From: an uncultured Alcaligenaceae bacterium
GTDB taxonomy: Bacteria > Pseudomonadota > Gammaproteobacteria > Burkholderiales > Casimicrobiaceae
Reading direction: 5' to 3'
Assembly (NCBI GenBank): GCA_964620265.1
Contig: CAZUGY010000002.1
Location: 13,504-77,503, forward strand
Length of the DNA stretch: 64,000 nt
In this document: positions 40,437 through 59,283 of the stretch, in pieces
How the letters are laid out: each line of letters starts with the position of its first letter
How positions within the stretch are numbered: the first letter of the stretch is position 1
Program-made: the position numbers and the translations under genes
The notes under the pieces: generated by a model
Databases searched by the model: none
The model's input: the letters and a program-made list of their open reading frames with translations, nothing else
What the model was told of the DNA's origin: nothing

Positions 40437-42689
40437 ATGGCAACTGCGCTGAAGGCTGCCGCGCGCAGCCAGGATCCATGGCGGGATTTCACCCCTGGCG
40501 TGTGGCAGTCGCGCGTCGACGTGCGCGACTTCATCCAGCGCAACTACACGCCGTACGAAGGTGACGGCGCGTTCCTCGCCGGCCCCACCGCCCGCACCAC
40601 GAACCTGTGGAAGTCCCTGGCGCCGCTGCTGGCCGAAGAGCGCAAGAAGGGCATCCTCGACGTCTCGCAGGTGCCCGCGGGCATCCTCGCCCATGGTCCC
40701 GGCTACATCGACCGCGACCACGAGATCATCGTCGGACTGCAGACCGACGCGCCGCTGAAGCGCGCGATCATGCCCAACGGCGGCTGGCGCGTGGTGGCAG
40801 CAAGCCTCGAGGCCTACGGCTACAAGCCCGACGAGCGCGTGGGCGAGATCTTCACCAAGTACCGCAAGACGCACAACGACGGCGTGTTCGATGCCTACAC
40901 GCCCGCGATCCGCAAGGCGCGCAAGTCCGGCGTGGTGACGGGCCTGCCCGATGCCTACGGCCGCGGCCGCATCATCGGCGACTACCGGCGCGTCGCGCTG
41001 TACGGCGTCGATTTCCTCATCGAGGACAAGCAGCGCGAGAAGGCCGAGCTCGACGACCGCCACTCCATCGAGGAGGTGATCCGCGTGCGCGAGGAGCTCG
41101 CCGAGCAGATCCGGTCGCTGCAGGAGCTGAAGGAGATGGCCGCGAGCTATGGCCACGACATCGCAGGTCCCGCGGCCAATGCGCGCGAGGCCGTGCAGTG
41201 GACCTACTTCGGCTACCTCGCCGCGATCAAGCAGCAGAACGGCGCCGCGATGTCCGCCGGGCGGCTGTCCACGTTCTGGGACATCTACTTCGAGCGCGAC
41301 CTGCGCGACGGCACGCTCACCGAGGCGCAGGCGCAGGAGATCATCGACGACGTCGTGATCAAGTGGCGCCTCGTGCGCTTCCTCCGCGCGCCCGAATACA
41401 ACGCGCTCTTCTCCGGCGATCCCGTGTGGGTCACCGAGGTGGTGGGCGGCATGGGCGACGACGGGCGCACGCTGGTGACGAAGAGCGCGTTCCGCATGCT
41501 GCACACGCTGAACAACCTGGGCCCCGCGCCGGAGCCCAACCTGACCGTCTTCTGGTCCACGCGCCTGCCCGAGGGCTTCAAGCGCTTCGCGATCAAGGTG
41601 TCGATCGACACCAGCTCCATCCAGTACGAGGCCGACGACCTCATGCGGCCCAAGTGGGGCGACGACTGTGCCATCGCCTGCTGCGTGTCCGCCATGCGCC
41701 TCGGCAAGCAGATGCAGTTCTTCGGCGCGCGGGTCAACCTGCCCAAGACGCTGCTCTACGCGCTCAACGGCGGCCGCGACGAGATCAGCGGCGAGCAGAT
41801 CGCCCCGCGCCTGGCCCCCGTGACCGGCGACGTCCTCGACTACGACGAGGTGATGGCGCGCCTCGATCCGATGCTCGACTGGCTCGCGCAGACCTACGTG
41901 AATGCGCTGAACGTCATCCACTACATGCACGACAAGTACTGCTACGAGGCGATCGAGATGGCGCTGCACGATCGCGACGTGCTGCGCACGCTGGCCTGCG
42001 GCATCGCCGGCCTCTCGCATGCCGCCGACAGCCTGTCGGCGATCCGGTACGCCAAGGTACGTCCGGTCCGCGACGAGCGCGGGATCATCGTCGACTTCCA
42101 CACCGAGGGCGAGTTCCCCTGCTTCGGCAACAACGACGACCGCGCCGACGACATCGCCAAGGCACTGGTGTCGACGATGATGAACAAGATCCGCCGCTTC
42201 CCGACCTACCGCAACGCCGTGCACACGCAATCGGTGCTCACGATCACGTCCAACGTGGTGTACGGCAAGGCCACCGGCAACACGCCCGACGGCCGCAAGA
42301 AGGGCGAGGCCTTCGCCCCCGGCGCCAATCCCTCCAACGGCCGCGATACGCATGGCGCGCTGGCGGCGCTCATGTCGGTGGCCAAGATCCCCTACGACGA
42401 CGCCGAGGACGGCATCTCGCTCACGCTCTCGGTGGTGCCGTCCGCGCTCGGCAACGCGCAGGAGCGCCTCGACCGCGGCGTGGGCGCGCTCGACGCCTAC
42501 TTCGGCACCGGCGGCTTCCACGTCAACATCAACGTGCTGAACCGCGAGACGCTGCAGGATGCGATGAAGCATCCGGAGAAGTATCCGCAGCTCACGATCC
42601 GGGTGTCGGGCTACGCGGTGAACTTCGTCAAGCTCACGAAGGAGCAGCAGCAGGACGTCATCAACCGCACGTTCCACGGCGCGATCTAG
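40437..42689 (+). CDS. pflB: Pyruvate formate-lyase (formate C-acetyltransferase)
   Basis: 750 aa. [31 protein letters not shown], catalytic IACCVS, and glycyl-radical motif [11 protein letters not shown]. Confidence 0.97.
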
Positions 42690-42696
42690 GACCCCC

Positions 42697-43554
42697 ATGG
42701 CGGACACGCTGGTGGGCAGCCGCTATTCGCTGCATGTCGCAAGGCGTGGCGCAAACGAGACGAAGGCCTCGCGCGACTATTTTGCCGTGCAGCCCGGGGA
42801 CACCGAGCTCGATGCCCCCGGCGAGGACATCGCGGGCTTCGTCCACTCCTACGAGGTGGGCAGCACGGTGGACGGGCCGGGACTGCGCTTCGTGGCCTTC
42901 CTCACCGGCTGCCTGCTGCGCTGCCAGTACTGCCACAACCCGGATACCTGGCACAAGCACAACGGCCACCCCGTGACCGTGTCGCGCGCCATGAAGACGA
43001 TCGGCAAGTACGCCGCGGTGCTCAAGCTCTCCAGGGGCGGCATCACGATCTCCGGCGGCGAGCCCGTGGTGCAGAAGGCCTTCGTCGTGGAGGTGTTCCG
43101 CCGCTGCAAGGCACTCGGCCTGCACACCTGCCTCGACACGTCGGGGCGACTGGGCGAGCGCCTCACCGACGAGGACCTCGCGTCCATCGACCTCAACCTG
43201 CTCGACATCAAGTCGGGCGACCCCGAGATCTACGAGCGCGTGACGCGGCAGCCGCTGCAGCCCACGCTCGACTATGCGCGGCGGCTGTCGGCGCTCGGCC
43301 GTCCCATGTGGATCCGCTACGTGCTCGTGCCGGGCCTCACCGACGGCGTCGACAACGTCGAGAAGGTCGCGCAGTTCTGCGGGAGCCTCGCGACCGTCGA
43401 GCGCGTGGAGATCCTGCGCTTCCACCAGATGGGCCGCGACAAGTGGGAAAAGCTGGGCCTCGAATACACGCTGGGCAACGTCGAGCCGCCCGACGCCGCG
43501 CTGACCGAGCGGGTGCGCGGGCAGTTCCGCAGCCACGGCCTCACCGTCTACTAG
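42697..43554 (+). CDS. pflA: PFL-activating enzyme (radical SAM)
   Basis: GSTVDGPGLRFVAF, CLLRCQYCHNPDTW (CxxxCxxC), GGITISGGEP and WIRYVLVPGLTD. Confidence 0.96.
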   Translation: MADTLVGSRYSLHVARRGANETKASRDYFAVQPGDTELDAPGEDIAGFVHSYEVGSTVDGPGLRFVAFLTGCLLRCQYCHNPDTWHKHNGHPVTVSRAMKTIGKYAAVLKLSRGGITISGGEPVVQKAFVVEVFRRCKALGLHTCLDTSGRLGERLTDEDLASIDLNLLDIKSGDPEIYERVTRQPLQPTLDYARRLSALGRPMWIRYVLVPGLTDGVDNVEKVAQFCGSLATVERVEILRFHQMGRDKWEKLGLEYTLGNVEPPDAALTERVRGQFRSHGLTVY

Positions 43555-43588
43555 ACGACGATCACCAGGCAACTCATCGGGGAAGACC

Positions 43589-45178
43589 TTGGAATTCCTG
43601 CGCACCCTGCTCGAGCAGCAACCGCTGATGGCGGTATTCCTCACCATCGCCATCGGCTATCTCGTGGGCGAGATCAACATCAAGGGCTTCTCGCTCGGGG
43701 TGGGCGCCGTCCTCTTCGTGGCGCTCGCGGTCGGCTGGTTCGCACCCAAGTCGGCGCCCGCGCCGATGGTCGGCACGCTCGGCCTCGCGCTCTTCCTCTA
43801 TGCCGTGGGCGTGCAGTACGGCAAGCAGTTCTTCCTGGGCCTCACCAGCGCGGAGGGACGCAAGGCGAACTTCATCGCCCTCGTGGGCGTGCTGTGCGCG
43901 GGGCTCGTGAGCCTCCTCTTCGTGAAGGTGATGGGGCTGAACCTGGGCCATGCGCTCGGGCTCTTCGCCGGCTCCGGCACGAGCACGCCCACGCTGCAGG
44001 CCGCGATCGTGACGCTGGGCAACGACGATCCCGCCGTCGGCTACTCGGTGTCCTACCCCTTCGGCGTGGCCGGACCGATCCTCCTGCTCTACATCGCCTT
44101 CATGGTCATGAAGCCGCGGCTCGACCGGCCGGGTGCCGGCGGCATGGAGCTGCTCGAGATCGCGCTGCGCAATCCCGAGCACATCGGCCGCACGCTCTCC
44201 GAGGTGAGCGCGGCCCTGCCCGCGGGCGTGAGCATCGCGGCCCTGCGCCGGCAAAGCCAGAACGAGCCGGCCGCCCCCGCCACGGTGCTCGCCGAGGACG
44301 ACGTGCTCCTCGCCGTCGCCTCGACGCAGGTCGCGCTCGAAAGCGCGCGCAAGATGCTGGGCGAAGCGGCGCCGGGCCGCATCGCCAAGGACCGCCGCGA
44401 CCTCGACTATGTCCGCGTGTTCGCCTCCCGGCCCGCCATCGTGGGCCGCGCGCTCGGCGACCTGGCGTTGCCGGGCCGGAAGGCCTCGATCGTGGCGCAC
44501 GTGCGCCGGGGGGACACCGACATCCTGCCGCGACCCGACCTCGTGCTCGAGTTCGGCGATCGCATCGGCCTCCTCGCGCATCGCGACGATTTCGCCGCGC
44601 TGCGCAAGCACTTCGGCGATTCGATCAAGGGCACCGCCGAGTTCAGCTACGTGTCGATCGGGCTCGGCATGGCGGCGGGCTTCCTGCTCGGCGCGATCCA
44701 GCTGCCGCTGCCGGGCATCGGCAAGATCGCCGTGGGCCTGTCGGGCGTGCTCATCATGGCGCTGATCCTCGGCAACTTCCGCCGTACGGGCGGGCTCAAC
44801 TGGACGATTCCCTTGTCGGCCAACCTCGTGCTGCGCAACCTGGGGCTGACGCTGTTCCTGGCCCAGGTCGGCATGGCCTCCGGGCCGAAGTTCGCCGCCA
44901 CCGTCTCGCAGACCGGCTTCATGATGCTGGGCCTGGGCGCGCTCGTGCTGCTCGCCCTCGTGATCCCGATCATGATCCTGGGCTTCCTCGTCTTCCGCAT
45001 GCCCTACGACGAGGTCGCGGGCATCGTCGCGGGCGCGTGCGGCAATCCCGCGATCCTCGCCTACGCCAACAAGCTCGCCCCCACCGATCGCCCGGACCTG
45101 GGCTACGCGATGATCTTTCCCGGCATGACGATCGTGAAGATCATCTTCGTCGACGTGGTTCCCGCATTGGTCACATGA
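43589..45178 (+). CDS. AspT/YidE/YbjL-family (AAE) exchanger, third copy
   Basis: TTG start after a GGGAAG RBS. LFLYAVGVQYG, GLFAGSGTSTPTLQAA, TrkA-C loops, and GACGNPAILAYA...YAMIFP. Confidence 0.88.
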   Translation: MEFLRTLLEQQPLMAVFLTIAIGYLVGEINIKGFSLGVGAVLFVALAVGWFAPKSAPAPMVGTLGLALFLYAVGVQYGKQFFLGLTSAEGRKANFIALVGVLCAGLVSLLFVKVMGLNLGHALGLFAGSGTSTPTLQAAIVTLGNDDPAVGYSVSYPFGVAGPILLLYIAFMVMKPRLDRPGAGGMELLEIALRNPEHIGRTLSEVSAALPAGVSIAALRRQSQNEPAAPATVLAEDDVLLAVASTQVALESARKMLGEAAPGRIAKDRRDLDYVRVFASRPAIVGRALGDLALPGRKASIVAHVRRGDTDILPRPDLVLEFGDRIGLLAHRDDFAALRKHFGDSIKGTAEFSYVSIGLGMAAGFLLGAIQLPLPGIGKIAVGLSGVLIMALILGNFRRTGGLNWTIPLSANLVLRNLGLTLFLAQVGMASGPKFAATVSQTGFMMLGLGALVLLALVIPIMILGFLVFRMPYDEVAGIVAGACGNPAILAYANKLAPTDRPDLGYAMIFPGMTIVKIIFVDVVPALVT

Positions 45179-45933
45179 GCGATCTCGCCACGAGTCCCGC
45201 GTCGGTCTCCGCCACCGGCCGTGGCGCGGCGCAGGCACGGCCCCGTGACGAGGCGGGCGGCGATTCGCGGCGGGCGGCGGAGGTGCTGCGCGCACGCGAG
45301 CTGGCGTGGCGCCTGTCCACGCCGGGCGCCAGCAGCGTCAGGGTCCCGCGCGGGCACGTCCTCGTGCGCAGCGGCGCCCGTTTCGAGGGGCTGTACGTGA
45401 TCCGCTCCGGCTCCTGCATGCTGGTCGTCACGAGTCCCGATGGCGAGGAGCACATCGCCTCGTTCCGCCTTCCCGGCGAGGTCCTGGGCTTCGAGGCGCT
45501 CGCCAGCGGCGTGCACGAAGCCACGGTCCATGCGCTCGAGCCCATGACCTGCTGGCGGCTTCCCGCCGAGCGTGTCGACGCGCTCCTGCGCCAGGACCCG
45601 GCGTTCGCGCAGACGCTGGTCCACGCGCTGTCGCTCGAGGCGGGACGGGGCCTGGCGGGCATGCTCCTGCTCGGAACCATGACGGCCGACCAGCGAGTGG
45701 CGTCGTTCCTGCTCGATCTCGCCGAGCGGTATCGCCAGCTCGGCTTCTCCGACAGCGCCTTCGAGCTCCGGATGACGCGCGCCGAGATCGGCCGCCACCT
45801 GGGCCTCTCCACGGAGACCGTGAGCCGCGTGCTCTCGCGCTTCCGCGCCGACGACCTCGCGATCGTGGACGGACGCAGCGTGCGCCTGCCCGATCGCGCG
45901 GCGCTGGGCCGGATCCTGGTCCACGGCGGCTGA
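45175..45933 (+). CDS. Crp/Fnr-family regulator, FixK-like (no N-terminal Cys cluster)
   Basis: LYVIRSGS, F.LPGEVLGFE, TADQRVASFLLDL, and MTRAEIGRHLGLSTETVSR (FNR-type recognition helix). ATGA overlap with the transporter. Confidence 0.9.
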   Translation: MSDLATSPASVSATGRGAAQARPRDEAGGDSRRAAEVLRARELAWRLSTPGASSVRVPRGHVLVRSGARFEGLYVIRSGSCMLVVTSPDGEEHIASFRLPGEVLGFEALASGVHEATVHALEPMTCWRLPAERVDALLRQDPAFAQTLVHALSLEAGRGLAGMLLLGTMTADQRVASFLLDLAERYRQLGFSDSAFELRMTRAEIGRHLGLSTETVSRVLSRFRADDLAIVDGRSVRLPDRAALGRILVHGG

Positions 45934-46053
45934 ACGGGACGGGGCCGCCGGCGCCGTCGAGCGCGCGGTGGCCACGGGCAGCGGGGGACAATCGCACCGT
46001 GCCGTGACGGCGCGGCGGCCCACGCCGTGCGGGCTGTTGCAGAATGCGGCCCC

Positions 46054-46628
46054 ATGCCGCCCTCCGCCACGCCCTCCGGAACGGGCGCCCATGCCTTCGC
46101 GCACCAGGCGTTCGCGCTGCTCTTCCTCCTCATGGCGATCAATCACCTCGACCGGCATGTCGTGGTGGGCATGTTCGGCCCGCTCGCGGCAGCGTGGAGC
46201 CTCACCGACACGAAGCTCGCCATGCTCGTGTCGATCGTGTCGATCGTGGTCGCGGCGGCCTCGGTGCCGCTTTCCATGCTGGCCGACCGCTGGGGCCGGG
46301 TACGCAGCATCGTGGCGATGGCGCTCGTGTGGAGCCTCGCCACGGATCCGTCGTGATGATGGCGGGCGTGGGCCCGGTCATCGCCGTAGCCCTGGACGTG
46401 GTCCCGCCGCACGTCCGCGCGACCGCCGCCGCCATCGTCGCCATGGCGCAGAACCTGATCGGCCTCGCCGGGGGTGCGTTCATCGCAGGCGCCTTGTCCG
46501 ATCGATACGGCTTGCAGGCCGCACTGGCGATCGTGCCGGCCTTTGCCCTGCCCGCTGCCTTGTGCCATGCGCTGGCGTGCCGCACCTATGTGGCCGACAT
46601 GCATCGCGCAGCACAACGCGAACGCTGA
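46054..46628 (+). pseudogene. Internally deleted, frameshifted paralog of the MFS at 6480-7805 (about TM1-3 joined to TM10-12)
   Basis: 46054-46356 aligns by eye to the N-terminus of the MFS (INHLDRHVV vs VDYVDRQVI; LADRWGRVRSI..WSLAT vs LADRWSRVKSI..WSLAT). 46356-46628 aligns to its C-terminus (VRATAAAI..QNLIGLAGG..LSDRYGLQ). The middle is missing. Confidence 0.8.
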
Positions 46629-46774
46629 AGAGCGAACGCCACGCGCAGTCGCCGCTGCGTTATCCTTGCGGTAGATCATGCCGCCCGGGCTTCCGGGCCA
46701 GTACCCTTGCCGCATCGCCATCCTGGTGCGCTGCGGCTCCTCGAAACAGCGCAGCGCAACCTCAAGTGACTTCC

Positions 46775-48085
46775 ATGCCCCTCGCATCACACTCGCGCTG
46801 GATCGCAGCCTTCGCCTGCGCCACGCTCCTCCCCCCGCTGCACGCCCAGACGCCCACCGCGCCCGCCACCGCGCCGCCCGCGGCCGCCAGCACCCAGGCC
46901 GCCGCCCCGGCGAGTGCCACGTTCTCGCAGGAGGAGCTCGACCAGCTCGTTGCTCCGATCGCGCTCTACCCTGATGCCTTGCTCGCACAGGTGCTGATGG
47001 CCTCCACCTATCCGCTCGAGGTGGTCGAGGCCGAGCGCTGGGTCAAGGCGAACCCGGGACTCAAGGACAAGGCGCTCGAGGATGCGCTGCAACAGCAGAA
47101 GTGGGACCCGAGCGTGAAGTCGCTCGCGGTGTTTCCGCAGGTCCTCACGATGATGAGCGAGAAGCTCGACTGGACGCAGAAGCTCGGCGACGCTTTCCTC
47201 GCGCAGCAGAAGGACGTGCTTGCCACGGCGCAGGCGCTGCGCAGCAAGGCTTCCGCGCAAGGGGCGCTCAAGGACACGAAGGAGCAGAAGGTCATCACCA
47301 CGCAGGAGAACAACACCACGGTGATCAAGATCGAGCCCACGAATCCGGAGGTGGTGTACGTCCCGTCCTACAACCCCACCGTGGTGTACGGCGCATGGCC
47401 CTATCCCGCCTATCCGCCGTACTACTGGTATCCGCCGGGGTACGTGGCCGGAGGCGCGCTCCTGGGCTTCACGGCCGGGGTCATCGTGGGCGGTGCGCTC
47501 TGGGGTGGAGTGGGCTGGGGCCGCGGCGACGTGGACATCAACGTGAATCGCTACAACAACTTCAACAAGACGAACATCAGTAACGGCAACTGGAAGCACA
47601 ACGCCGAGCACCGCGGCGCGGTTCCCTATCGCGACAAGGGCGTTGCACAGCAGAACGGCCGCGGCCAGGCCGCCGACGCCGCGTCGCGCGACGCCTTCCG
47701 CGGTCATGCCGACGCCGGCCGCCAGCAGATCCAGCGCGGCGAGGTAGCGGCTCCGCGCAACACGCAAATGGATAGAGGCGGTGCGGGCGCGGGCGACCGC
47801 GGCGGCGCGGGCGCCGGCAACCGACCGGGCGGAGGCGCAGGTGGCAATTACGGCGGCGCAGGCAATCGCGGAGGCTACAGCGGCGCCAGCGCGGGACAGC
47901 ACGACATGAGCGGCCGCGGCAGCTCGGCATTCGACACGCGCAGCGCGTCGCAGGCACGCAGCTCGAGCAACCGCGGCGCATCGAGCATGAACTCGTCGAT
48001 GGGAGCCGGACACATGTCCCGGGGTGGCGGAGGTGGTGGTGGAGCAAGAGGCGGCGGTGGTGGTGGACGGGGAGGACGGCGATGA
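46775..48085 (+). CDS. DUF3300-family exported protein with a Gly/Arg-rich disordered tail
   Basis: Signal peptide, ELDQLVAPIALYPDALLAQVLMASTYP, WDPSVKSL, IEPTNPEVVYVPSYNP and WKHNAEHRGAVPY. Confidence 0.88.
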   Translation: MPLASHSRWIAAFACATLLPPLHAQTPTAPATAPPAAASTQAAAPASATFSQEELDQLVAPIALYPDALLAQVLMASTYPLEVVEAERWVKANPGLKDKALEDALQQQKWDPSVKSLAVFPQVLTMMSEKLDWTQKLGDAFLAQQKDVLATAQALRSKASAQGALKDTKEQKVITTQENNTTVIKIEPTNPEVVYVPSYNPTVVYGAWPYPAYPPYYWYPPGYVAGGALLGFTAGVIVGGALWGGVGWGRGDVDINVNRYNNFNKTNISNGNWKHNAEHRGAVPYRDKGVAQQNGRGQAADAASRDAFRGHADAGRQQIQRGEVAAPRNTQMDRGGAGAGDRGGAGAGNRPGGGAGGNYGGAGNRGGYSGASAGQHDMSGRGSSAFDTRSASQARSSSNRGASSMNSSMGAGHMSRGGGGGGGARGGGGGGRGGRR

Positions 48086-49056: not shown

Positions 49057-49110
49057 TTCTCGGCGCGTCGGCGCGCTCGCGCCGACGCCGCTCTCCTCCA
49101 AGGAACTGAC

Positions 49111-50225: not shown

Positions 50226-50280
50226 CGCCGGCACGCCACCTCGCAAGCGAACCTCGCGGCGCCTTCTCCTGCGTGCCGAG

Positions 50281-51621
50281 GTGCGCCTGCGGCGGTTCGC
50301 GCGCCACCTGCGCGGCCGCCTCGCATGGGGCCGCCTCTACTGGCTCACGAGCTACCTGCGCTCGGCACTGTGGACGGTGCCGCTCATCGCCATCGCGATC
50401 GTGATCGTCGCGGTGCCGGCGCTGCGCTGGCTCGACCGCTGGCTGCACTGGGAGTGGACCGCCCTCGCTCCGGCCGGCGCGGAAGCGCTCTACCAGACCG
50501 CGATCACGCTCACGCTGTCGTTCCTCGTCTTCACGTTCGGCTCGCTGCTGGTGGCGATCCAGGTCGCGGGCGGGCAGCTCACGCCGCGCATCATCGCCAC
50601 GATCCTGCTGCGCAACAACGTGGTCCGCTACAGCGTGGGCCTGTTCACCTTCACGCTCGTGTTCGCGGTGATGGCGTTGAACCGCCAGGAAGCCGCGGTG
50701 AGCCAGCTCGTGGCGTTCCTCGTCGCATTGCTGGGCATCGCGAGCATCGCGGACTTCCTCTTCCTCATCGACTACGCCGCGCGGCTCCTGCGCCCGGTGA
50801 GTGTCGTGGCCCACGTGGGCAATGCCGCGGTGGACGTGATCCGCAGCGTCTATCCGGTGCTGCTCACCGAGGCGATGGCCGACGTGCAGCCGCTGCGCAT
50901 CGGCACCGACAAGCCCGTGCGCCTGGTCGTGCACCGCAGCGCTCCCGGCATCGTGCTCGCCGTGGACCTGCGCTCGATCGTGAGCCACGTGCGCCGCCAC
51001 GGGGGCGTGGTGGAGTTCATGCCGCGCGTGGGCGACTTCGTGTCCGAGGACGATCCGCTGTTCGCCCTCTTCGGCGCCGCCGCATCGATCGACGACCGCG
51101 TGCTGCACGCGACCGTCGCGGTGGGTGTCGAACGCACGCTCGAGCAGGATCCGATGTTCGCCTTCCGCATCCTCGTCGACATCGCCTTGAAGGCGCTGTC
51201 GCCCGCCATCAACGATCCCACCACCGCGGTGCTGGCCCTCGACCAGATCCACCGCCTCCTGCGGCTCGTGGGCAAGCGGCGGCTGCGCAGCGAGCTCGTG
51301 CACGACGACGCGGGCGCGCCGCGGATCATCTTCCGCACGCCGAACTGGGAGGACTACGTCGAGGTCTCCTGCAAGGAGATCCGCCACTGCGGCGGCGCAA
51401 GCCTCCAGGTCGTGCGGCGGATGCGCGCGATGCTCGAGGACCTGCACGAGGCCGTCCCCGCGTCGCGCCGGACCGCGCTGGAGCAGGAGCTGCGCCTCCT
51501 CGACGCGACAGTCGATGCCTCCTTCCCCGCTCGCGAGGATCGCGAGCTCGCACGCATCGGCGATCTCCAGGGCCTGGGCAGCGCGACGCCACGCGGCGGC
51601 GACCCGGTGACGCATCCATGA
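50281..51621 (+). CDS. DUF2254-family membrane protein (start uncertain)
   Basis: QVAGGQLTPRII, ERTLEQDPMFAFRILVDIALKALSPAINDPTTAV and NWEDYV. Confidence 0.82.
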   Translation: MRLRRFARHLRGRLAWGRLYWLTSYLRSALWTVPLIAIAIVIVAVPALRWLDRWLHWEWTALAPAGAEALYQTAITLTLSFLVFTFGSLLVAIQVAGGQLTPRIIATILLRNNVVRYSVGLFTFTLVFAVMALNRQEAAVSQLVAFLVALLGIASIADFLFLIDYAARLLRPVSVVAHVGNAAVDVIRSVYPVLLTEAMADVQPLRIGTDKPVRLVVHRSAPGIVLAVDLRSIVSHVRRHGGVVEFMPRVGDFVSEDDPLFALFGAAASIDDRVLHATVAVGVERTLEQDPMFAFRILVDIALKALSPAINDPTTAVLALDQIHRLLRLVGKRRLRSELVHDDAGAPRIIFRTPNWEDYVEVSCKEIRHCGGASLQVVRRMRAMLEDLHEAVPASRRTALEQELRLLDATVDASFPAREDRELARIGDLQGLGSATPRGGDPVTHP

Positions 51622-52511
51622 TCCCCGGTGGCATCGTGCCCGACTGGCTGCTGTCGATCACGGCCGCCTGCACGCTCTTCGTCGTGATGTTCGACCTGGG
51701 GCTCGCGGTGGTGCCGGGGGAATTCCGCGCGGTGCTGCGCCCGCCCGGGCTCCTCACCCGCGCGCTCTTCGCGGTGCTCGTGGCCGTGCCGTGCATGGTC
51801 TGGCTCGTGTGCAGGGTGTTCGACCTCTCCCGTCCGGTCGAGATCGGGATGATGCTCATGGCGATCGCTCCGGGGGCGCCATTCGCGCTGCGCAACTCGC
51901 TCGGCGCGGGCGGCCACCCGGCCTTCGCGCCGGTGCTGCAGATCGGCCTCGCCTTCGCGGCGATCGTGTCGATGCCGCTGTGGATCCTGGGCCTCGACGA
52001 GTACTACGCGGGCACGGCGTCGGTCGATCCGCGCCACCTCGCCCGCCAGGTGATGGTGGCGCAGCTCCTGCCGCTCGCGCTCGGCATGCTCGCGCGCTGG
52101 CGCTTCGAGGGCCTGGTCGCGCGGCTCGAGCCCGCGCTGCGGCAGGTCGGCTCGGGCCTCCTCGGGCTGTTGCTGGTGCTGGCGCTCCTCGACGTGTACC
52201 AGACCGTGCTCGATGCCGGGCCGCGCGTCGCGGTGGCCATCGTCGTGGCCACGCTGCTCGCCCTCGCGGCGGGACATCTGCTGGGCGGGCCGGCCGCGGG
52301 CACGCGCACGGCCACCGCCATCTCGAGCGCCTCGCGCAACGCGGGGCTCGCGCTCCTGGTGGCCACGCTCAATCACGCGAGCGCCGCGATCGTCGCGACG
52401 GTGCTCGCCTATTTCGTGCTCTCGGCGAGCACCGTAGTCGTCTACGCGCTGTGGCGCCGCCGCACGGCGGCCGCGACGGCGATTCCACCACCGGCAAGAG
52501 GAGTGCAATGA
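51618..52511 (+). CDS. Bile acid:Na+ symporter (BASS)-family transporter
   Basis: VMFDLGL, MAIAPGAPF, QLLPLALGM, AISSASRNAGLALLVA. About 9-10 hydrophobic segments. Confidence 0.8.
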   Translation: MIPGGIVPDWLLSITAACTLFVVMFDLGLAVVPGEFRAVLRPPGLLTRALFAVLVAVPCMVWLVCRVFDLSRPVEIGMMLMAIAPGAPFALRNSLGAGGHPAFAPVLQIGLAFAAIVSMPLWILGLDEYYAGTASVDPRHLARQVMVAQLLPLALGMLARWRFEGLVARLEPALRQVGSGLLGLLLVLALLDVYQTVLDAGPRVAVAIVVATLLALAAGHLLGGPAAGTRTATAISSASRNAGLALLVATLNHASAAIVATVLAYFVLSASTVVVYALWRRRTAAATAIPPPARGVQ

Positions 52512-53410
52512 TGGCGAAGGACAAGGGCAAGGCGCGCGGTGCGAGCCGCGCAACGACGGACAAGGCAGTGAAGGAGGCGACGGCCACGAAGCGGCCCGCG
52601 CGCAAGGCGTCCGCGGACGCAGGCAACCAGGCGGGCGGCGAGCTCAGCGGCAAGCAGTACGACGCGGAGCTGAAGAAGCTGCACATCGAGCTCGTGAAGC
52701 TGCAGCAATGGGTGCAGGCCAAGGGCCTCAAGGTCTGCATCGTGTTCGAGGGGCGCGACGGCGCGGGCAAGGGCGGTACCATCAAGGCGATCACGGAGCG
52801 GGTGAGCCCGCGCGTGTTCCGGGTGGTCGCGCTGCCCGCTCCGACGGAGCGCGAGAAGTCGCAGATGTACGTGCAGCGCTACCTGCCGCACCTCCCCGCC
52901 GGCGGCGAGATCGTGATCTTCGACCGCAGCTGGTACAACCGCGCGGGCGTGGAGCGCGTGATGGGCTTCACGCCCGAGCACCAGGTCGAGCGCTTCCTCA
53001 AGGGCGTGCCGCTGGTGGAGAAGACGATCACCGACTCGGGGATCATCCTCCTCAAGTACTGGCTCGAGGTGAGCGAAGCGGAGCAGACGCGCCGGCTCGC
53101 GTCGCGCATCGAGGACGGCCGCAAGATCTGGAAGCTCTCGCCGATGGACCTCGAGTCGTACAGCCGCTGGTACGACTACTCGCGCGCCCGCGATGCGATG
53201 TTCGAGGCGACCGATACCGCGTGGGCGCCGTGGTACGTCGCCAATTCCGAGAACAAGAAGCGCGTGCGGCTCAACATCATCTCGCACATATTGTCGAGGA
53301 TTCCGTACGAGGAATTGCCGCGGGCGAAGATCGTGCTGCCCAAGCGGCAGAAGGCCAAGGGCTACAAGGACCCCGACTACGCCTACAAGCGGGTGCCGGA
53401 GAAGTACTGA
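52508..53410 (+). CDS. ppk2: Polyphosphate kinase 2
   Basis: FEGRDGAGKGGTIK Walker A, FDRSWYNRAGVERVMGF, WKLSPMD and WYDYSRARD. Confidence 0.95.
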   Translation: MMAKDKGKARGASRATTDKAVKEATATKRPARKASADAGNQAGGELSGKQYDAELKKLHIELVKLQQWVQAKGLKVCIVFEGRDGAGKGGTIKAITERVSPRVFRVVALPAPTEREKSQMYVQRYLPHLPAGGEIVIFDRSWYNRAGVERVMGFTPEHQVERFLKGVPLVEKTITDSGIILLKYWLEVSEAEQTRRLASRIEDGRKIWKLSPMDLESYSRWYDYSRARDAMFEATDTAWAPWYVANSENKKRVRLNIISHILSRIPYEELPRAKIVLPKRQKAKGYKDPDYAYKRVPEKY

Positions 53411-53438
53411 CCGTGCCGGGCCGCGGCAGCTCGGGCAC

Positions 53439-53466
53439 CGGGCGCGGGGCGGCGCGCCCGCGCCCG
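53439..53466. terminator. Hairpin between convergent ppk2 and fabI
   Basis: CGGGCGCGGG (53439-53448) and CCCGCGCCCG (53457-53466) form a perfect 10-bp stem. No U-tract. Confidence 0.5.
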
Positions 53467-53468
53467 TG

Positions 53469-54251
53469 TCACGCCATGATGTTGACGCCGCCGTCGATGT
53501 AGAGCGTCTCGCCCGACAGGCGCCGGGCGTAGGGCGTGGCGAGGTAGGCGCAGGTGAAGCCCACGTCCATGATGTCCACGAGCTCGCCCAGCGGCGCGCG
53601 CTGGGCGGCCTCGGTGAGGAGGAGGTCGAAGTCCTTCAAGCCCGACGCGGCGCGCGTCTTGAGCGGGCCGGGCGAGATCGCATGCACGCGGATGCCCTGC
53701 CCGCCGAGCTCGTAGGCGAGGTAGCGGCACGAGGCTTCGAGCGCGGCCTTGACCGGACCCATCACGCTGTAGGTGGGCACGACCTTGTTGGCGCCGTAGT
53801 AGCTCATCGCGAGCATGGTGCCGCCTTCGTCCATCAGCGGCGCCGCGAGGCGGGCCATGCGCACGAACGAATGGCAGGAGACGTCCATCGCCTTGGCGAA
53901 GCCCGCCGCCGAGCACTGCAGCAGCCCGCCCTGCAGGTCCTCCTTCGGCGCGAAGGCGATCGAGTGCACGAGGATGTCGAGGCGCCCCCAGGTGCGGCGG
54001 ATCTCGTCGAACACCGCTTCGAGCTCGCCCTCCACGGACACGTCGAGCGGCATGAAGATGGCAGCGCCGAGGTCGCGCGCGAGCGGCTCGACATACGGGC
54101 GCGCCTTGGCATTGAGGTGCGTCACGGCGAGATCGGCGCCGAGCTCGCGGAAGGCCTTGGCGCAGCCCCAGGCGATCGACTGGTCGTTGGCGATCCCCAC
54201 CACGAGCGCCTTGCGGCCCTCGAGGATGCGCGTGTGCGATGCGGCGGTCAT
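53469..54251 (-). CDS. fabI: Enoyl-ACP reductase (NADH)
   Basis: VVGIANDQSIAWG, LDILVHSIAFAP, YSVMGPVKAALE (Y..M...K), ISPGPLKTRAASG and YIDGG. Confidence 0.92.
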   Translation of the reverse strand: MTAASHTRILEGRKALVVGIANDQSIAWGCAKAFRELGADLAVTHLNAKARPYVEPLARDLGAAIFMPLDVSVEGELEAVFDEIRRTWGRLDILVHSIAFAPKEDLQGGLLQCSAAGFAKAMDVSCHSFVRMARLAAPLMDEGGTMLAMSYYGANKVVPTYSVMGPVKAALEASCRYLAYELGGQGIRVHAISPGPLKTRAASGLKDFDLLLTEAAQRAPLGELVDIMDVGFTCAYLATPYARRLSGETLYIDGGVNIMA

Positions 54252-54264
54252 TCCGGTCTCTTCC

Positions 54265-55458
54265 TCAGGAAGCGTTCGCGGGCGAGAGCACGTTGCGCGT
54301 GTGGCGCGCGATCATGAGCTCTTCGTTGGTGGGAAGTGCGAGCACCGCCACGCGGCTTTCGGGGGTGCTGATGCGGATGGCGCCGGCGGCATTGGCCGCG
54401 GGGTCGAGCGCCACGCCGAGCCACGCGGCATCGCGGCACACGCGCTCGCGCAGCGATACGCTGTGCTCGCCGATGCCCGCCGTGAACACGATCGCATCGA
54501 GCCCGCCCAGCGCCGCTGCGAGCGAGCCCAGCTCGCGGCCGATGCGGTAGACGAAGAGGTCGATCGCCTCGCGCGCGTGCGGATCGGCGCTCGCCTCGAG
54601 CGTGCGCATGTCGCTCGACACGCCGGACACGCCGAGGAGCCCGGACTGCTGGTAGATGAGCTTCTCGATGGCGCGCGCATCCATGTGCAGCTCGTTCATG
54701 CAGTAGAGCAGCACGCCGGGATCGATGTTGCCGCAGCGCGTGCCCATCGGGAGGCCGTCGACGGCGGTGAAGCCCATCGTGCTCGCCACGCTGCGCCCGG
54801 CGGCGAGCGCGCACATGCTGGCGCCGTTGCCCAGGTGCAGCACGACCGTCCGGCCCGTCGCCGCGCGCGCGTCGTGCCCGGGCAGCGCCTGCGCGATGTA
54901 CTCGTATGAGAGGCCATGGAAGCCGTAGCGCACGACACCACGCTCGCCGAATTCGCGCGGCAGCGCGAAGGCCTGCGCCACCGCGGGCTGGCTGCGGTGA
55001 AAGGCGGTGTCGAAGCACGCCACCTGCGGCAAATCGGGTTGTCGCGCCATCAGCAGGCGGATGGGTGCCAGGTTGTGCGGCTGGTGCAGCGGGGCGAGCG
55101 GCACGAAGCGCTCGAGCGCGGCGAGCACCCCGGCATCCACGCGGATGGGCCGCGCGTAATCCGGGCCGCCGTGCACCACGCGATGCCCCACGGCCGTGAG
55201 CGTGTACGCCGAGAAGCGCGCACGCAACAGCGCGATGAGGTAGTCGAGCGCGCCTTCGTGCCCGAGGCTCGCGCCGTCGCCCCAGGACTTCTCGTCGAAC
55301 ACCTTGCCGCTGCTGTCGCGCGCGACGAAGCGCGGCGAGGTGAACAGGCCCTCGGCCTGGCCGCTGGCGAAGACGGACAGCTCGCCTCCGCGCGGTTCGA
55401 AGAGCGAGAACTTGAGGCTCGACGAGCCCGCGTTGAGGACGGCGATCGCGTCGGGCAT
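54265..55458 (-). CDS. ackA: Acetate/propionate kinase
   Basis: LNAGSSSLKF, GHRVVHGG, FDTAFH, RYGFHGLSY, HLGNGAS, PMGTRCG and PTNEELMIA. Confidence 0.95.
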   Translation of the reverse strand: MPDAIAVLNAGSSSLKFSLFEPRGGELSVFASGQAEGLFTSPRFVARDSSGKVFDEKSWGDGASLGHEGALDYLIALLRARFSAYTLTAVGHRVVHGGPDYARPIRVDAGVLAALERFVPLAPLHQPHNLAPIRLLMARQPDLPQVACFDTAFHRSQPAVAQAFALPREFGERGVVRYGFHGLSYEYIAQALPGHDARAATGRTVVLHLGNGASMCALAAGRSVASTMGFTAVDGLPMGTRCGNIDPGVLLYCMNELHMDARAIEKLIYQQSGLLGVSGVSSDMRTLEASADPHAREAIDLFVYRIGRELGSLAAALGGLDAIVFTAGIGEHSVSLRERVCRDAAWLGVALDPAANAAGAIRISTPESRVAVLALPTNEELMIARHTRNVLSPANAS

Positions 55459-55460
55459 CG

Positions 55461-56402
55461 TCAGGCGAGCGCCTTGCCGGGCGCTTCGCGCCGCGCGCTG
55501 GCAACGAGCGACGCGATGCCGCACGAGGCAAGGCGGGTGGTGTTGGAGTCGGCGCGGCTGGTGAGGATGATCGGCACGCGCGCGCCGAGCACGATGCCGG
55601 CGGCGTCGGCGCCGGCGAGGAACGACAGGCTCTTGGCGAGCATGTTGCCCGCCTCGAGATCCGGCACGACAAGCACGTTGGCCCGTCCGGCCACCGGCGA
55701 ATCGATCTTCTTGATCTTCACCGACTCGAGGCTGATCGCGTTGTCGAGCGCGAGCGGACCGTCGAGGATGGCGCCCGTGATCTGCCCGCGATCGGCCATC
55801 TTGCACAGCGCGCCCGCCTCGACCGTGGACGGGACCTTGGGATTCACCGTCTCCATCGCGGAGAGGATGGCGACACGCACTTCGGGAAAGCGCATGGCGT
55901 GCCCGAGGTCGATGGCGTTCTGGATGATGTGGACCTTGTCCTCCATCGTGGGGGCGATGTTGATCGCCGCGTCGGTGACGATGAGGGTCTCGCTGTACGA
56001 GGGCACGTCCATGACGAAGCAGTGGCTGACCCGGCGCGAGGTGCGCAAGCCCGTCTCGCGCCGCACCACCGCACCCATGAGCTCGTCGGTATGCAGGCTC
56101 CCCTTCATGAGCGCCTCCGCCTTGCCCTCGCGCACGAGGGCCACCGCCCTGGCGGCGGAGGCCTCGGTATCCGCGGCATCGACGAGCGGCAGCGCGGCGA
56201 TGTCGATCCCGTGCTTGCGTGCGACCTCCTCGATGAGCGCCTTGGGACCCACGAGGATCGGGGCGATGAGCCCGAGCGCCGCGGCGTCCACCACTCCCCG
56301 CAGCGAGCTCTCGTCGCATGGGTACGCCACCGCGGTGGGCACCGGTGGCAGCGTCTTGCAGAAATCGAGGAGACGCTGGTATTTCTCGCGCGTTCGTTCC
56401 AT
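55461..56402 (-). CDS. pta: Phosphate acetyl/butyryltransferase (no MaoC domain)
   Basis: LMKGSLHT, DAAINIAP, DGPLALDNA, VPDLEAGNMLAK and GARVPIILTSRAD. Directly upstream of ackA. Confidence 0.88.
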   Translation of the reverse strand: MERTREKYQRLLDFCKTLPPVPTAVAYPCDESSLRGVVDAAALGLIAPILVGPKALIEEVARKHGIDIAALPLVDAADTEASAARAVALVREGKAEALMKGSLHTDELMGAVVRRETGLRTSRRVSHCFVMDVPSYSETLIVTDAAINIAPTMEDKVHIIQNAIDLGHAMRFPEVRVAILSAMETVNPKVPSTVEAGALCKMADRGQITGAILDGPLALDNAISLESVKIKKIDSPVAGRANVLVVPDLEAGNMLAKSLSFLAGADAAGIVLGARVPIILTSRADSNTTRLASCGIASLVASARREAPGKALA

Positions 56403-56412
56403 GAGGGGCTCG

Positions 56413-58851
56413 CTAGGGGCGTGAAGAGGTCTTGGTCCCGGGTTTGCGCACGGTGCCGCGCTTGCGCACCGTCTTGCGTGCCCGCGGCGGGGCCGTGCCC
56501 CGGGTCACAGCCTTGGGCGCGGGCGTCTTCGCCTTCTTCGCGGGCGCCGCGGCAGGCGGGGATTGCAGCGCTAGCACGTGGCTCAGCTCCTCCACCATCG
56601 CGAGCTGGCCCTTGGTGGGATCGGTGCGCCGTACGCGCGGATCCTGCACGAGGCGGCGCACCAGCGTGACGAGGCGCGCGCGGTCGCGGGGGTCGCGCAG
56701 CAGCTCGGGCAAGGTGGCGAGCGCCTCGTCGGGCGCATAGCGGACGACGATGTCCTGCTCGCCCCGGATGCGCCGCCACTGGTCGGGCGGCATGTCGGGG
56801 AGAAGGTCGCGATACTCGCCCAGGAGCTGCTGGCGCGTGGACAGCCGCGACAGCAGCACGGGCTCGCCCTTGCGCGCCAGGAGGCAGGCCACGCGCGCCA
56901 GCGCCTCGGGATAGCCCCCCTGCGCCATCGAGGCCAGCGCCTCCTGCACGAAAGGCAGGTCGCGCGGCTCCGCCACGCCCGCCGGCGCGGACGGGCGCTT
57001 GTCCGCCACGTAGAGCGAGAAGACGTTGCCGTAGGTGAGGAAGAATGCCGCCTCGCTGGCGGCATCGCGCACTGCGCGATAGTGGTCGAGCGAGGCGCTG
57101 ATCGCCGCGGAGGCGGCCTTCTCCAGCTTCACGTAGGCATTGTCAGTGGCCGCGCTCGTGCGCTGCTCGCGCACCGCATGCGCGGCAGGGCCGAGCCAGG
57201 CAAGCCACGGATTGAGGTCGGAGACCGCCCAGCGCTGCGCGCGCAACGGATGCAGCGTGCGCGCGAGCTTGGCCGTGTACTCGTTGGCGCCTGCCTGCAC
57301 GAGCGGCTGCAGGAACAATTCGTAGGCGCGCTGGTTGAACTCGGAGACGGCGGCGAGCGCCTCGAACGGCTGCTCGTCGGCGCGCTGGAAGCGGTTCAGC
57401 CGCGCCATCACGCTCTCGAGCGTGCGCTCCTCGAAGGCGACGTCGAATTCGGTCGCCCCGCCGCGCCCCTTGCGCTCGCGGATGTGCATCGCATAGAGTC
57501 CGGGCGGGAGCATCTCGATCGAATGCAGCACCTCGACGATCTGCGCGTGCTCCTTGTTCGCCACCTTGCCGGAGACGAAGATGCCGAGATGGCCCACGCT
57601 CTCGTGCACCAGCCCCACGATGACCTGGCCGCGCGACTTGATCTCGTCGGTGGATCCGTAGACGTCGGCCACCCAGTTGAAGGCCTGCTGCGGCGGCGTG
57701 ATGTTGTCGCCCATCGACGCGAACAGGATGATCGGCGCCTTGATCGAGCGCAGGTCGAACACCTCGCCGCCCGGACCCTTCGTATCGCCCGTCCACAGCT
57801 TGTTGCCGACGAAGAGGTTGCGGGTGATCCACTCGATCTCCTCGCGGTTCATGAGGTAGAAGCCGCCCCACCAGCGCTCGAACTCGAGGAAGCGCGGGGG
57901 CTCGGTGTCGACGTTCGAGTAGAGGTGGTAGTACTTGTCCCAGAAGGTGTTGGCGGGATTGAGGTTCTCGAAGTTGTCGACGAGGTGCGCGCCGTCGAAC
58001 ACGCCGTCGCCCAGGTCGGCGGTGAGCGAGGCGAGCCAGGCGCCGCCCAGCATGCCGCCGGCGTAGCGCATCGGATTGTCGCCCGCGCCTTCGTCCCACG
58101 CGCCGCCCCAGTAGGACATCGGCGCGCCGTTGATCACGATGGGGCCGGTGTCGTCGGGATCGGCGGCGGCGAGCATCATCGCCGCCCACCCGCCCTGGCA
58201 GTTGCCGATGATGGCGGGCTTGGGGCTTTGCGGATGCAGCTCCCGCACCTTGCGCACGAAGGCCTGCTCCGCGCGGCACACGTCGAGCAGCGTCTGCCCG
58301 GGCTCGGGGTCGCGGAAGAAGATCACGAAGTAGACGGGATGGCCCGCGCGCAGCGCCACGCCCACCTGCGAGTCGTCCTTGAAGCCGCCGATGCCGGGAC
58401 CATGGCCCGCGCGCGGATCGATGATGACGTAAGGGCGGGACGTGGGATCGATCTGCGTGCCCGCGGGCGGCACGATGCGCACGAGCGCGTAGTTCACCGG
58501 GCGCGCGAGCGTGCGGCCATCGACCACGATCTCGTGCTCGAAGTGGAGCACGGGGGGCAGTCCGGCGTTGGCGTGCTCGAGGAAGGCATTGCCGCGCTGG
58601 CGCAACGTGTCCCAGAAGAGCACGGCGCGCTGGCTCGCGTCGACCGCGTAGGCGTACGCGTCGGTCCACAGGCGGGCGGCGTCGGCGGGCGTGGCGGGAG
58701 GCGCGCCCACGCCGTGGTCCTCGCGCGCCTGCGCGAGGCGCCGCGAGAGGGCATCCTGCGCGATCTCCACGCGCTTGCGGAAGACGGTGCCGACCTTGGT
58801 GGCGATGTCCTGGCTGCGTGCGAGCTTGCTCGCCGGGCTCGGCCTGCTCAT
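56413..58851 (-). CDS. DUF3141-family PhaC-like alpha/beta hydrolase
   Basis: IDPRAGHGPGIGGFK, nucleophile motif GNCQGG, SMGDNITPP (Asp), VGHLGIF (His) and RFLEFERWW. Basic C-terminal tail. Confidence 0.85.
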   Translation of the reverse strand: MSRPSPASKLARSQDIATKVGTVFRKRVEIAQDALSRRLAQAREDHGVGAPPATPADAARLWTDAYAYAVDASQRAVLFWDTLRQRGNAFLEHANAGLPPVLHFEHEIVVDGRTLARPVNYALVRIVPPAGTQIDPTSRPYVIIDPRAGHGPGIGGFKDDSQVGVALRAGHPVYFVIFFRDPEPGQTLLDVCRAEQAFVRKVRELHPQSPKPAIIGNCQGGWAAMMLAAADPDDTGPIVINGAPMSYWGGAWDEGAGDNPMRYAGGMLGGAWLASLTADLGDGVFDGAHLVDNFENLNPANTFWDKYYHLYSNVDTEPPRFLEFERWWGGFYLMNREEIEWITRNLFVGNKLWTGDTKGPGGEVFDLRSIKAPIILFASMGDNITPPQQAFNWVADVYGSTDEIKSRGQVIVGLVHESVGHLGIFVSGKVANKEHAQIVEVLHSIEMLPPGLYAMHIRERKGRGGATEFDVAFEERTLESVMARLNRFQRADEQPFEALAAVSEFNQRAYELFLQPLVQAGANEYTAKLARTLHPLRAQRWAVSDLNPWLAWLGPAAHAVREQRTSAATDNAYVKLEKAASAAISASLDHYRAVRDAASEAAFFLTYGNVFSLYVADKRPSAPAGVAEPRDLPFVQEALASMAQGGYPEALARVACLLARKGEPVLLSRLSTRQQLLGEYRDLLPDMPPDQWRRIRGEQDIVVRYAPDEALATLPELLRDPRDRARLVTLVRRLVQDPRVRRTDPTKGQLAMVEELSHVLALQSPPAAAPAKKAKTPAPKAVTRGTAPPRARKTVRKRGTVRKPGTKTSSRP

Positions 58852-58901
58852 GTCCTGGAACTCCAAAAGCCGAGCACCCGCGGCGTGCCAGCGCGTTGAG
58901 A

Positions 58902-59234
58902 CTATGAAGGCTCGCCGCCGAGCTTGTCGCCGATCCGCGTGCGGATGTTGGCGACGATGTCCTTGATCACTTCGGCGGTGAGGGTCTCGCCCATCGCACT
59001 CGAGGCCTTGTCGCGGATGTGGTAGTGGAGCATGAGCGCGTTGCGCAGCTTGTCGAAGGCAGGCTTGTTGGCCGTGCCGCAGACCGAGGCGTCGTTGGCG
59101 AGCACGCGCTCGATGATGCCCGGATCGAGCAGGCGAACCTTGCACAGCGTGGCGAGACGCGCGACCTCGCGATCGACGTCTTCGAGGTTCTTGGCCCACC
59201 ACTTCGTGCCCAGATTGCTCTTGTCGTCACTCAT
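58902..59234 (-). CDS. Hypothetical 110-aa cytoplasmic protein
   Basis: Clean ORF with protein-like composition (WWAKNLEDVDREVARLATLCKVRLLDPG...). Fills the gap between same-strand genes. Confidence 0.72.
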   Translation of the reverse strand: MSDDKSNLGTKWWAKNLEDVDREVARLATLCKVRLLDPGIIERVLANDASVCGTANKPAFDKLRNALMLHYHIRDKASSAMGETLTAEVIKDIVANIRTRIGDKLGGEPS

Positions 59235-59240: not shown

Positions 59241-59283
59241 ACCTTAGCCGCTCGATCGTGTCAAGACCATGACATGAATCATA
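59241..59283 (-). promoter_or_regulatory. AT-rich putative promoter with a Crp/Fnr-like palindrome
   Basis: ATGAT-tcat-GTCAT on the minus strand (59269-59282) is centred 41.5 nt upstream of the ATG at 59234. TAAGGT at 59246-59241 could be a -10 or an RBS. Confidence 0.35.

Follow-up and report, generated by a model that had tools for sequence, protein, structure and literature searches.

A probable modular neighbourhood for energy conservation without oxygen in an uncultured Casimicrobiaceae bacterium

The lxa locus of Burkholderia cenocepacia J2315 brings together genes for an acetate kinase, a phosphate acetyl/butyryl-transferase, PhaC, phaB and a lysine-decarboxylase-type enzyme, along with a SulP transporter, a CRP/FNR regulator and a TGA-N6-TCA motif; the locus is needed for anoxic persistence, and low oxygen induces its ackA 75-fold and its pta/ptb 116-fold (PMC3721108). 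Here we consider a stretch of 64,000 nt (the window) from the genome of an uncultured Casimicrobiaceae bacterium, comprising positions 13504-77503 of contig C2 in an assembly of 4.19 Mb and 287 contigs that is 99.7% complete. In this window, genes for pyruvate formate-lyase (PFL), a gene for polyphosphate kinase 2 (PPK2) and an operon with the order DUF3141-pta-ackA-fabI lie in one neighbourhood. A sequence-only reading of this DNA had proposed an anoxic-survival island that couples fermentation with polyphosphate (polyP) and carbon storage, and all of the genes that it named are found in their places, with scores above curated family thresholds. We suggest, with moderate confidence, that the region represents a modular neighbourhood that evolution has maintained and that serves energy conservation without oxygen in a mainly respiratory soil betaproteobacterium. 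As a low-oxygen survival neighbourhood it appears to be real and non-random, and it is not unprecedented.

Comparison with described systems

The likening of the window to lxa in the earlier reading is apt. Both loci belong to a nominally aerobic betaproteobacterium, and they have in common an acetate kinase, a Pta-like transferase, a PhaC-type protein, an Orn/Lys/Arg-type decarboxylase and a CRP/FNR regulator. SulP, a member of lxa, recurs near DUF3141 in relatives of the window, and the TGA-N6-TCA-type motif is found in the window as a perfect box at the decarboxylase operon and as a conserved variant at the DUF3141 operon, though not at the units of pfl and PPK2. What sets the window apart from lxa is the presence of pflBA, PPK2, a dedicated FabI and exchangers of the AAE family, and of DUF3141 where lxa has a class I PhaC. 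Conversely, the multiple universal stress protein (Usp) genes, the class II ribonucleotide reductase, phaB, the alcohol dehydrogenases and the cytochromes that are hallmarks of lxa are absent from this region. Induction and a survival phenotype have been demonstrated for lxa, and for the window locus both would be predictions. The window resembles lxa in logic, not in content.

A second point of comparison is the ORF-pta-ackA-fabI operon of Sinorhizobium meliloti, which is reported, in the account that PMC8231600 gives of Summers, Denton and McDermott 1999, to be PhoB-induced. Its orfA is a DUF3141 gene, 47% identical to that of the window, and the gene order is the same, with DUF3141, a short Pta, AckA and FabI encoded on one strand and separated by short gaps (identities of 63%, ~62% and 59% for Pta, AckA and FabI, respectively; locus L081). 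The window adds sm110, a gene for a conserved 110-aa protein, upstream of the operon, and pflBA and PPK2 nearby. Control also differs, in that the same account gives PhoB and phosphate stress for the S. meliloti operon, whereas the window has an FNR-type promoter and no Pho box of the E. coli-type consensus. On pSymA of S. meliloti, the region of the DUF3141-pta-ackA-fabI operon lies between two pairs of FNR/FixK-type boxes that are nearly identical to each other (L081, 5604-5794 and 14289-14497), one pair being near adhP and a gene for a CBS-domain protein, which suggests a micro-oxic context there too.

In Burkholderia sensu lato, clusters of the form phaC(group D)-pta-ack-fabI have been described, together with phaJ-pta fusions (PMC8231600). 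These clusters combine a PhaC-type enzyme with the same three proteins as in the window (Pta, AckA and FabI), and they start with a PhaC-like protein or a short alpha/beta hydrolase, whereas in the window DUF3141 takes that place; a link to PFL or PPK2 is not described in PMC8231600. On chromosome 2 of B. cenocepacia, tblastn finds the order pta-ackA-(~390-aa alpha/beta hydrolase)-fabI (locus L090, 17482-21657), with a perfect FNR-type box, TTGACGGAAATCAA, 86 bp upstream of pta. Since pta and ackA are adjacent in this cluster, it is distinct from the lxa locus.

In Escherichia coli, focA-pflB-pflA and pta-ackA serve a mixed-acid fermentation under the control of FNR and ArcA. The window encodes the same chemistry, in that PflB, PflA, Pta and AckA cover, as the sequence-only reading had proposed, all of the steps from pyruvate to acetyl-CoA and formate, on to acetyl-phosphate, and finally to acetate and ATP; its PflB and PflA score as equivalogs. 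The two systems differ in that the pfl genes are clustered with pta-ackA in the window but not in E. coli, and an AAE transporter stands in the place of FocA/FNT. In addition, the Pta that the reading had named, although present, is of the short phosphate acetyl/butyryl-transferase (Ptb) type rather than the long E. coli type.

The association of pflBA with an AAE transporter instead of FocA, the frequent linkage to PPK2 and the presence of a second, Cys-less FNR-type regulator appear to be undescribed, judging from a literature search that covered DUF3141, the lxa locus and Casimicrobium and that was not aimed at PFL, PPK2 or regulator linkages. By the same search, DUF3141 itself is barely studied.

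The core operon and its promoter

Genes were chosen by their codon-position GC pattern first and by profile searches second. The core operon lies on the minus strand and begins with sm110 (58902..59234), for which Pfam and NCBIfam give no matches. DUF3141 follows (56413..58851; PF11339, 842 bits), a distant relative of PhaC in which the Cys-containing GxCxG box reads GNCQG; a local alignment with the genome's own PhaC spans the catalytic Asp region and a stretch beside the candidate His. Next come the short Ptb-type phosphate acetyl/butyryl-transferase (55461..56402; PRK11890, 515 bits, above cut-off), a kinase of the acetate/propionate family (54265..55458; TIGR00016, above cut-off) that is the sole AckA of the genome and, as the last gene, an enoyl reductase of the FabI type (53469..54251; PRK07533, 448 bits, above cut-off). 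A second FabI, 42% identical, is encoded on contig C1. The operon as a whole converges on PPK2, which is read from the opposite strand. Elsewhere in the genome, a second DUF3141 (55% identity) adjoins a second Ptb-type Pta (57% identity) at C142:4098-7779, and DUF3141 of this type is the commoner one in the genus; among 36 species-level genomes surveyed, a paralogue of 54% identity occurs in most, and the window type, at 70-78% identity, in about 13.

A scan of species genomes gave 80 loci of window-type DUF3141, mostly from metagenome-assembled genomes of Casimicrobiaceae and including flanks of at most 10 kb on either side, against which the proteins of the window were compared by tblastn. 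Pta has a hit in 75 of these loci, AckA in 71 and FabI in 62, and their genes are nearly always immediate neighbours there. Other genes follow at lower counts (PPK2 in 31, sm110 in 22, a GNAT protein in 20, DUF2950 in 14, the small exported protein of 49111-49701 in 12 and DUF3300 in 8), and the members of the pfl cassette are the least frequent, with PflB in 7 loci and PflA and the AAE transporter in 6 each. Where both flanks are complete, 23 of 50 loci have a PPK2 orthologue within 10 kb of DUF3141, against a chance that we estimate at about 2% per locus from the three PPK2 genes in 4 Mb. The clustering is non-random, well beyond chance, and proximity has been retained through repeated rearrangement; what the earlier reading had remarked on in a single genome is thus conserved across relatives. 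Other recurrent neighbours of DUF3141 in these relatives are genes for SulP, a beta-carbonic anhydrase, PhaR, phasin and PhaC.

FNR/FixK-type boxes are concentrated upstream of DUF3141 in these loci. The 1.56 Mb of sequence in these loci contain 55 perfect TTGA-N6-TCAA sites, of which 30 fall within the 500 bp before DUF3141; perfect boxes precede the gene in 30 of 78 loci, most of them reading TTGAC-N4-GTCAA. If one mismatch is allowed, 52 of the 78 upstream regions contain a box, compared with about 8 expected. A position weight matrix (PWM) was built from the sites upstream of DUF3141 in relatives and then run over the whole genome of the window, where the strongest intergenic sites lie upstream of two Usp genes and the genes for a NapA-type reductase, nnrS and ccoN. 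Others of these strongest sites precede the genes for a CcoI/FixI-type ATPase, a NarX-like kinase and a SLAC1/TehA channel, and a ccmC-like gene. Judged by the genes behind it, this genome-wide set of boxes marks a regulon for hypoxia and denitrification of the textbook kind. We also tried the canonical E. coli box, TTGAT-N4-ATCAA, which at up to one mismatch has no match in the pfl, PPK2 and DUF3141 promoters.

In the window, the promoter of the core operon (59241..59282) contains a variant FNR-type box, ATGATTCATGTCAT, at 59269-59282 on the minus strand, which was located with the PWM from the relatives and an alignment of upstream regions. The box is followed by 22 nt, the hexamer TAAGGT (59241-59246), 6 nt and the ATG of sm110. 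The same architecture is found in four relatives (L001, L005, L007 and L010), and in L006 the box is more degenerate; the conserved promoter can be written as nTGATCyAnGTCAy, 21-23 nt, TAnnnT, 6-8 nt and the sm110 ATG. The centre of the variant box lies at about -41.5 from this ATG, which is the geometry of a class II FNR site, and this position, together with a TAAGGT element 6 nt before the ATG, would imply that the sm110 mRNA is leaderless. We take the box to be probably functional because its position is conserved. A palindrome at 59259, TGTCAAGACCATGACA, was considered as a CRP- or Pho-like site and rejected, as roughly half of the shuffled sequences contain it too and it is not conserved in L001. 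A scan for promoter and terminator consensus sequences gave nothing informative in this 69% GC DNA.

Low-oxygen induction, and the pairing of regulators with sites, are what we infer from these boxes. The neighbourhood, or at least its core operon, is most probably oxygen-regulated. For the DUF3141 operon, which FNR/FixK-type boxes mark in relatives, the proposal of a low-oxygen module is supported; it is weaker for the pfl and PPK2 units, which have no box in the window.

The PhoB induction reported for S. meliloti, where DUF3141 likewise precedes pta, ackA and fabI, raises the alternative that the operon answers phosphate stress and that PPK2 is linked to it through high-energy phosphate, in the form of acetyl phosphate and polyP. 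The strong association of PPK2 with the operon would suit such a phosphate economy. However, no Pho box of the E. coli-type consensus (CTGTCAT-N4-CTGTCAT) is found anywhere in the 64 kb at up to three mismatches, FNR-type boxes dominate the orthologous promoters, and oxygen-labile PFL has been recruited into the same operon. We consider a phosphate-stress role highly improbable.

Units beside the core operon

The pfl unit is encoded on the plus strand and begins with a small Ala/Lys-rich exported protein of 135 aa (40011..40418), homologues of which lie directly upstream of DUF3141 in four loci (L036, L070, L048 and L057). It continues with PflB (40437..42689; TIGR01255, 1153 bits against a cut-off of 994), which has the active-site pair Cys415-Cys416 and the glycyl-radical motif RVSGY, and with the PFL-activating radical-SAM enzyme PflA (42697..43554; TIGR02493, 303 bits against a cut-off of 232), in which the CX3CX2C cluster is present as CLLRCQYC. 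The glycyl radical of PFL is destroyed by O2, and the enzyme is therefore useful only under anoxia. The third AAE/AspT-family transporter of the region (43589..45178; PF06826 and PF02080) comes next. Since no FNT/FocA channel (PF01226) is found in the 99.7%-complete genome and this transporter travels with pflBA, accompanying it in 6 of 7 loci, we regard it as a candidate exporter of formate or another organic anion.

The ATG of the following gene, which encodes a regulator of the CRP/FNR family (45175..45933, plus strand; PF00027 and PF13545), overlaps the stop codon of the transporter. The protein has cNMP-like and HTH_Crp_2 domains and an ETVSR recognition helix, corresponding to the E--SR of the FNR/FixK clade, and its best NCBIfam match is Fnr, with an alignment that starts only at model position 53. 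It has neither the N-terminal CX2CX5C nor the central Cys that would hold a [4Fe-4S] cluster, and it is not an oxygen-sensing FNR/Anr proper; as an FNR-clade protein without the N-terminal Cys cluster, it is well described by the term FixK-like that the earlier reading had used. A true FNR, with CX2CX5C and the central Cys, is encoded on contig C78 and shares the ETVSR helix with the window regulator. We considered the regulator as a member of the pfl cassette and rejected this, since none of the 80 loci has a CRP-family homologue in the 10 kb around DUF3141; the position of the regulator is conserved only in the closest relative of the window, genome G061, where an orthologue of 67% identity is found at the same place. 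The regulator gene is followed by the remnant of an MFS transporter (46027..46628, plus strand; weak MFS_1 match), of which an N-terminal and a C-terminal piece are left, each in a different frame. In G061 the orthologue is whole, at 453 aa, and shows translational coupling to the FNR-like regulator; the break in the window may be the mark of a rearrangement or a mistake of the assembly.

The distribution of the pfl genes is patchy, with pflB in only 4-5 of the 36 genomes of the genus, and where pflBA occurs it is always close to DUF3141. In the three of these with enough contig (G008, G001 and G011), it lies within 20 kb of window-type DUF3141 and PPK2. The same holds for G065, where pflBA and the AAE transporter gene are found 16 kb from DUF3141 on the same strand; the pflB orthologue there (L086, C4:172264-174367; 87-91% identity) is split into two overlapping frames, which reflects either a frameshift or a long-read consensus error. 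Elsewhere the pflB-pflA-AAE cassette lies inside the DUF3141 operon itself, on the same strand, where it follows DUF3141 in L036, pta in L071, ackA in L073 and L077, and fabI in L013 and L016. The closest relative, G061, has the same 30-kb layout as the window, from the exchangers, decarboxylase and AraC gene to the Mla genes, and its order after AraC is an orphan pflA, the FNR-like regulator, the intact MFS gene, DUF3300-PPK2, fabI-sm110 and the Mla genes. Its pflA is full-length (C15:45199-46287, L088/L001; 69% identity), and there is no pflB anywhere in the G061 genome, so that this is either an orphan activase or the trace of a recent loss of pflB.

PPK2 is the last gene of a second plus-strand unit, which begins with co-directional genes for DUF3300, DUF2950, a small exported protein (49111-49701), a GNAT protein and DUF2254 (46775..51621). 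These are followed by an SBF/BASS-family transporter (51620..52511, the start being approximate; PF01758), with homologues in 21 of the 80 loci, whose stop codon overlaps the start of PPK2. PPK2 itself (52508..53410; TIGR03707, 340 bits against a cut-off of 302) is of the single-domain, class I type, with one domain of ~226 aa in a protein of 300 aa and a Walker A motif that reads GRDGAGKG; two further PPK2 genes are found elsewhere in the genome. Across relatives, PPK2 is on the strand of the core operon in 26 of 31 loci, and in L064, L060 and L047 it starts 19-160 nt after fabI. The DUF3300-DUF2950 pair (46775-49701) recurs beside the DUF3141 operon in many relatives, and it is again next to this operon on a replicon of Eleftheria terrae (L082, 8487-10712) that also carries DUF3302-HlyD-TolC genes; a functional link between the pair and the operon is not evident from the gene content.

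On the other side of the pfl unit, and on the minus strand, lies an operon headed by a long-form decarboxylase of the Orn/Lys/Arg type (35634..38432; OKR_DC_1, PF01276 at 1e-67), with two exchangers of the AAE/AspT-YidE-YbjL family as its distal genes (32176-33885 and 33886-35613; PF06826 and PF02080 in both). About 210 nt upstream of the decarboxylase start is a perfect FNR/FixK-type box, TTGATGCACGTCAA (38644..38657; 18.5 bits on the PWM), the only site in the window that scores in the range of true sites. The decarboxylase has orthologues in 7 of the genomes from the genus, and that of G035 is encoded on the contig that carries DUF3141 and PPK2. Between the decarboxylase and pfl units is a gene for an AraC-family regulator (38751..39842, minus strand; PF12625 and PF12833).

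Coherence and possible role of the neighbourhood

The region is made up of three or more transcription units, of which two are convergent; the units are separated by unrelated envelope genes, and the ~6.5 kb that separate the pfl block from PPK2, from the MFS remnant to the SBF transporter, code for unrelated proteins. This layout favours an alternative in which independent operons merely lie near each other, their chemistry being an ordinary mixed-acid fermentation and their proximity the genome history of one family, so that PPK2-SBF and the DUF3300/DUF2950 genes would serve unrelated purposes. It is also favoured by the fact that in the window no FNR-type site precedes the PPK2 and pfl units, and that PPK2 does not occur in the 10-kb flanks of about half of the loci, nor in the loci of Azotobacter and Eleftheria. 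However, PPK2 stays near DUF3141 through many arrangements and orientations, directly after fabI on the same strand in several genomes, and the pfl cassette has entered the DUF3141 operon at four different positions. Linkage that varies in this way and is nonetheless retained is the pattern expected under selection for co-expression, and we regard full independence of the operons as unlikely.

Several observations weigh against a maintained neighbourhood for energy conservation without oxygen, the reading that we favour. The PWM scan of the window finds no FNR-type site for the DUF3300-to-PPK2 unit and none for the pfl unit, which adjoins the AraC regulator, and some 5 kb of envelope genes and genes of unknown function, with no evident link to energy metabolism, lie between the modules. 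The variant box of the core operon departs from the motif at its two outer positions and reaches only 4.6 bits with the PWM, and the perfect box at 38644 is not kept in the closest relative, G061. The loci compared are phylogenetically related, so the counts given above exceed the number of independent events. Finally, the S. meliloti operon is PhoB-controlled in the account of PMC8231600, and oxygen therefore need not be the only signal, or even the main one.

The term island, used in the sequence-only reading, is a misnomer for a region of at least three transcription units in which GC is flat (0.67-0.72 across the window, without a compositional step) and a tRNA scan of the window finds none. 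No integrase is found among the open reading frames scanned at 32-64 kb, and patchy presence is seen for the pfl cassette only; this is not a horizontally acquired genomic island.

In the reading that we favour, the sm110-DUF3141-pta-ackA-fabI operon would be the conserved core, driven by an FNR/FixK-type class II promoter, and its endpoint would be the conversion of acyl-CoA by way of acyl-phosphate to an acid and ATP, that is, substrate-level phosphorylation. The pfl unit would be an accessory cassette that delivers acetyl-CoA from pyruvate into Pta-AckA without making NADH, and that also contributes anion export and a second FNR-type regulator. PPK2, presumably co-transcribed with the SBF transporter at the end of its unit, would regenerate nucleoside triphosphates (NTPs) from polyP, and the decarboxylase/exchanger operon, with its strong FNR box, would consume protons or support the proton motive force. 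DUF3141 and FabI could possibly act in the CoA-dependent mobilisation and reduction of C4 units derived from polyhydroxyalkanoate (PHA).

A bolder extension, which we put forward tentatively and hold to be doubtful, joins all of these activities into one integrated, respiration-independent maintenance pathway that would draw on three internal or cheap reserves and be switched on by FNR-type regulators in presumed obligate aerobes. DUF3141 would then be a CoA-dependent (thiolytic) enzyme that mobilises PHA, the resulting C4-CoA would be reduced in part by the dedicated FabI as a sink for NADH, and the Ptb-type transacylase and the kinase would turn the C4-CoA products into acid and ATP. PFL would provide acetyl-CoA without NADH and PPK2 would provide NTP from polyP, and the repeated insertion of pflBA into the operon, together with PPK2 directly after fabI, would mark the members of a single pathway.

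The genome also encodes enzymes that make such reserves, but not here: PPK1 is on contig C37 and two class I PhaC genes are on contigs C12 and C39. The neighbourhood thus appears to hold reserve-consuming enzymes and not those for polyP or PHA synthesis, and the resemblance to polyphosphate-accumulating organisms that the earlier reading had drawn, although the genome does have the synthetic enzymes, stands as an analogy only. Taken literally, that resemblance would mean that AckA and Pta activate external acetate with ATP obtained from polyP via PPK2, and that DUF3141 polymerises PHA as an electron and carbon sink. Besides PPK1 and the two PhaC genes, the PhaC-type Cys box in DUF3141 and the recurrence of PhaR, phasin and PhaC genes near DUF3141 in relatives would be in line with this, and Casimicrobium huifangae, a cultured member of the family that is described as obligately aerobic, removes phosphorus from wastewater (PMC13515534). 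Yet the neighbourhood contains no phaA or phaB, an internal supply of acetyl-CoA from PFL suits acid production better than acetate uptake, and the FabI step has no role in the synthesis of polyhydroxybutyrate from acetate. Acetate uptake with PHA storage at this locus is, in our view, very unlikely.

Casimicrobiaceae and the soil Burkholderiales related to them are abundant bacteria, for the most part uncultured, that are taken to be aerobes. If the neighbourhood does conserve energy without oxygen, FNR-marked enzymes that form ATP independently of respiration would explain how such bacteria persist through the anoxic episodes that are frequent in wet soil and activated sludge. The comparative pattern also offers the best approach at present to the DUF3141-pta-ackA-fabI operon, which has been known since 1999 and has no function assigned to it; an oxygen-labile PFL and a polyphosphate kinase can now be counted among its partners. 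Cultured bacteria that carry the operon include Eleftheria terrae, Azotobacter chroococcum DSM 2286, Caballeronia (C. zhejiangensis) and S. meliloti.

Some 3.9 kb before the window, at C2:9609, an FNR-type box of 20.1 bits lies upstream of the gene for an anion channel of the SLAC1/TehA type, and the hypoxia-marked neighbourhood may thus extend beyond the window.

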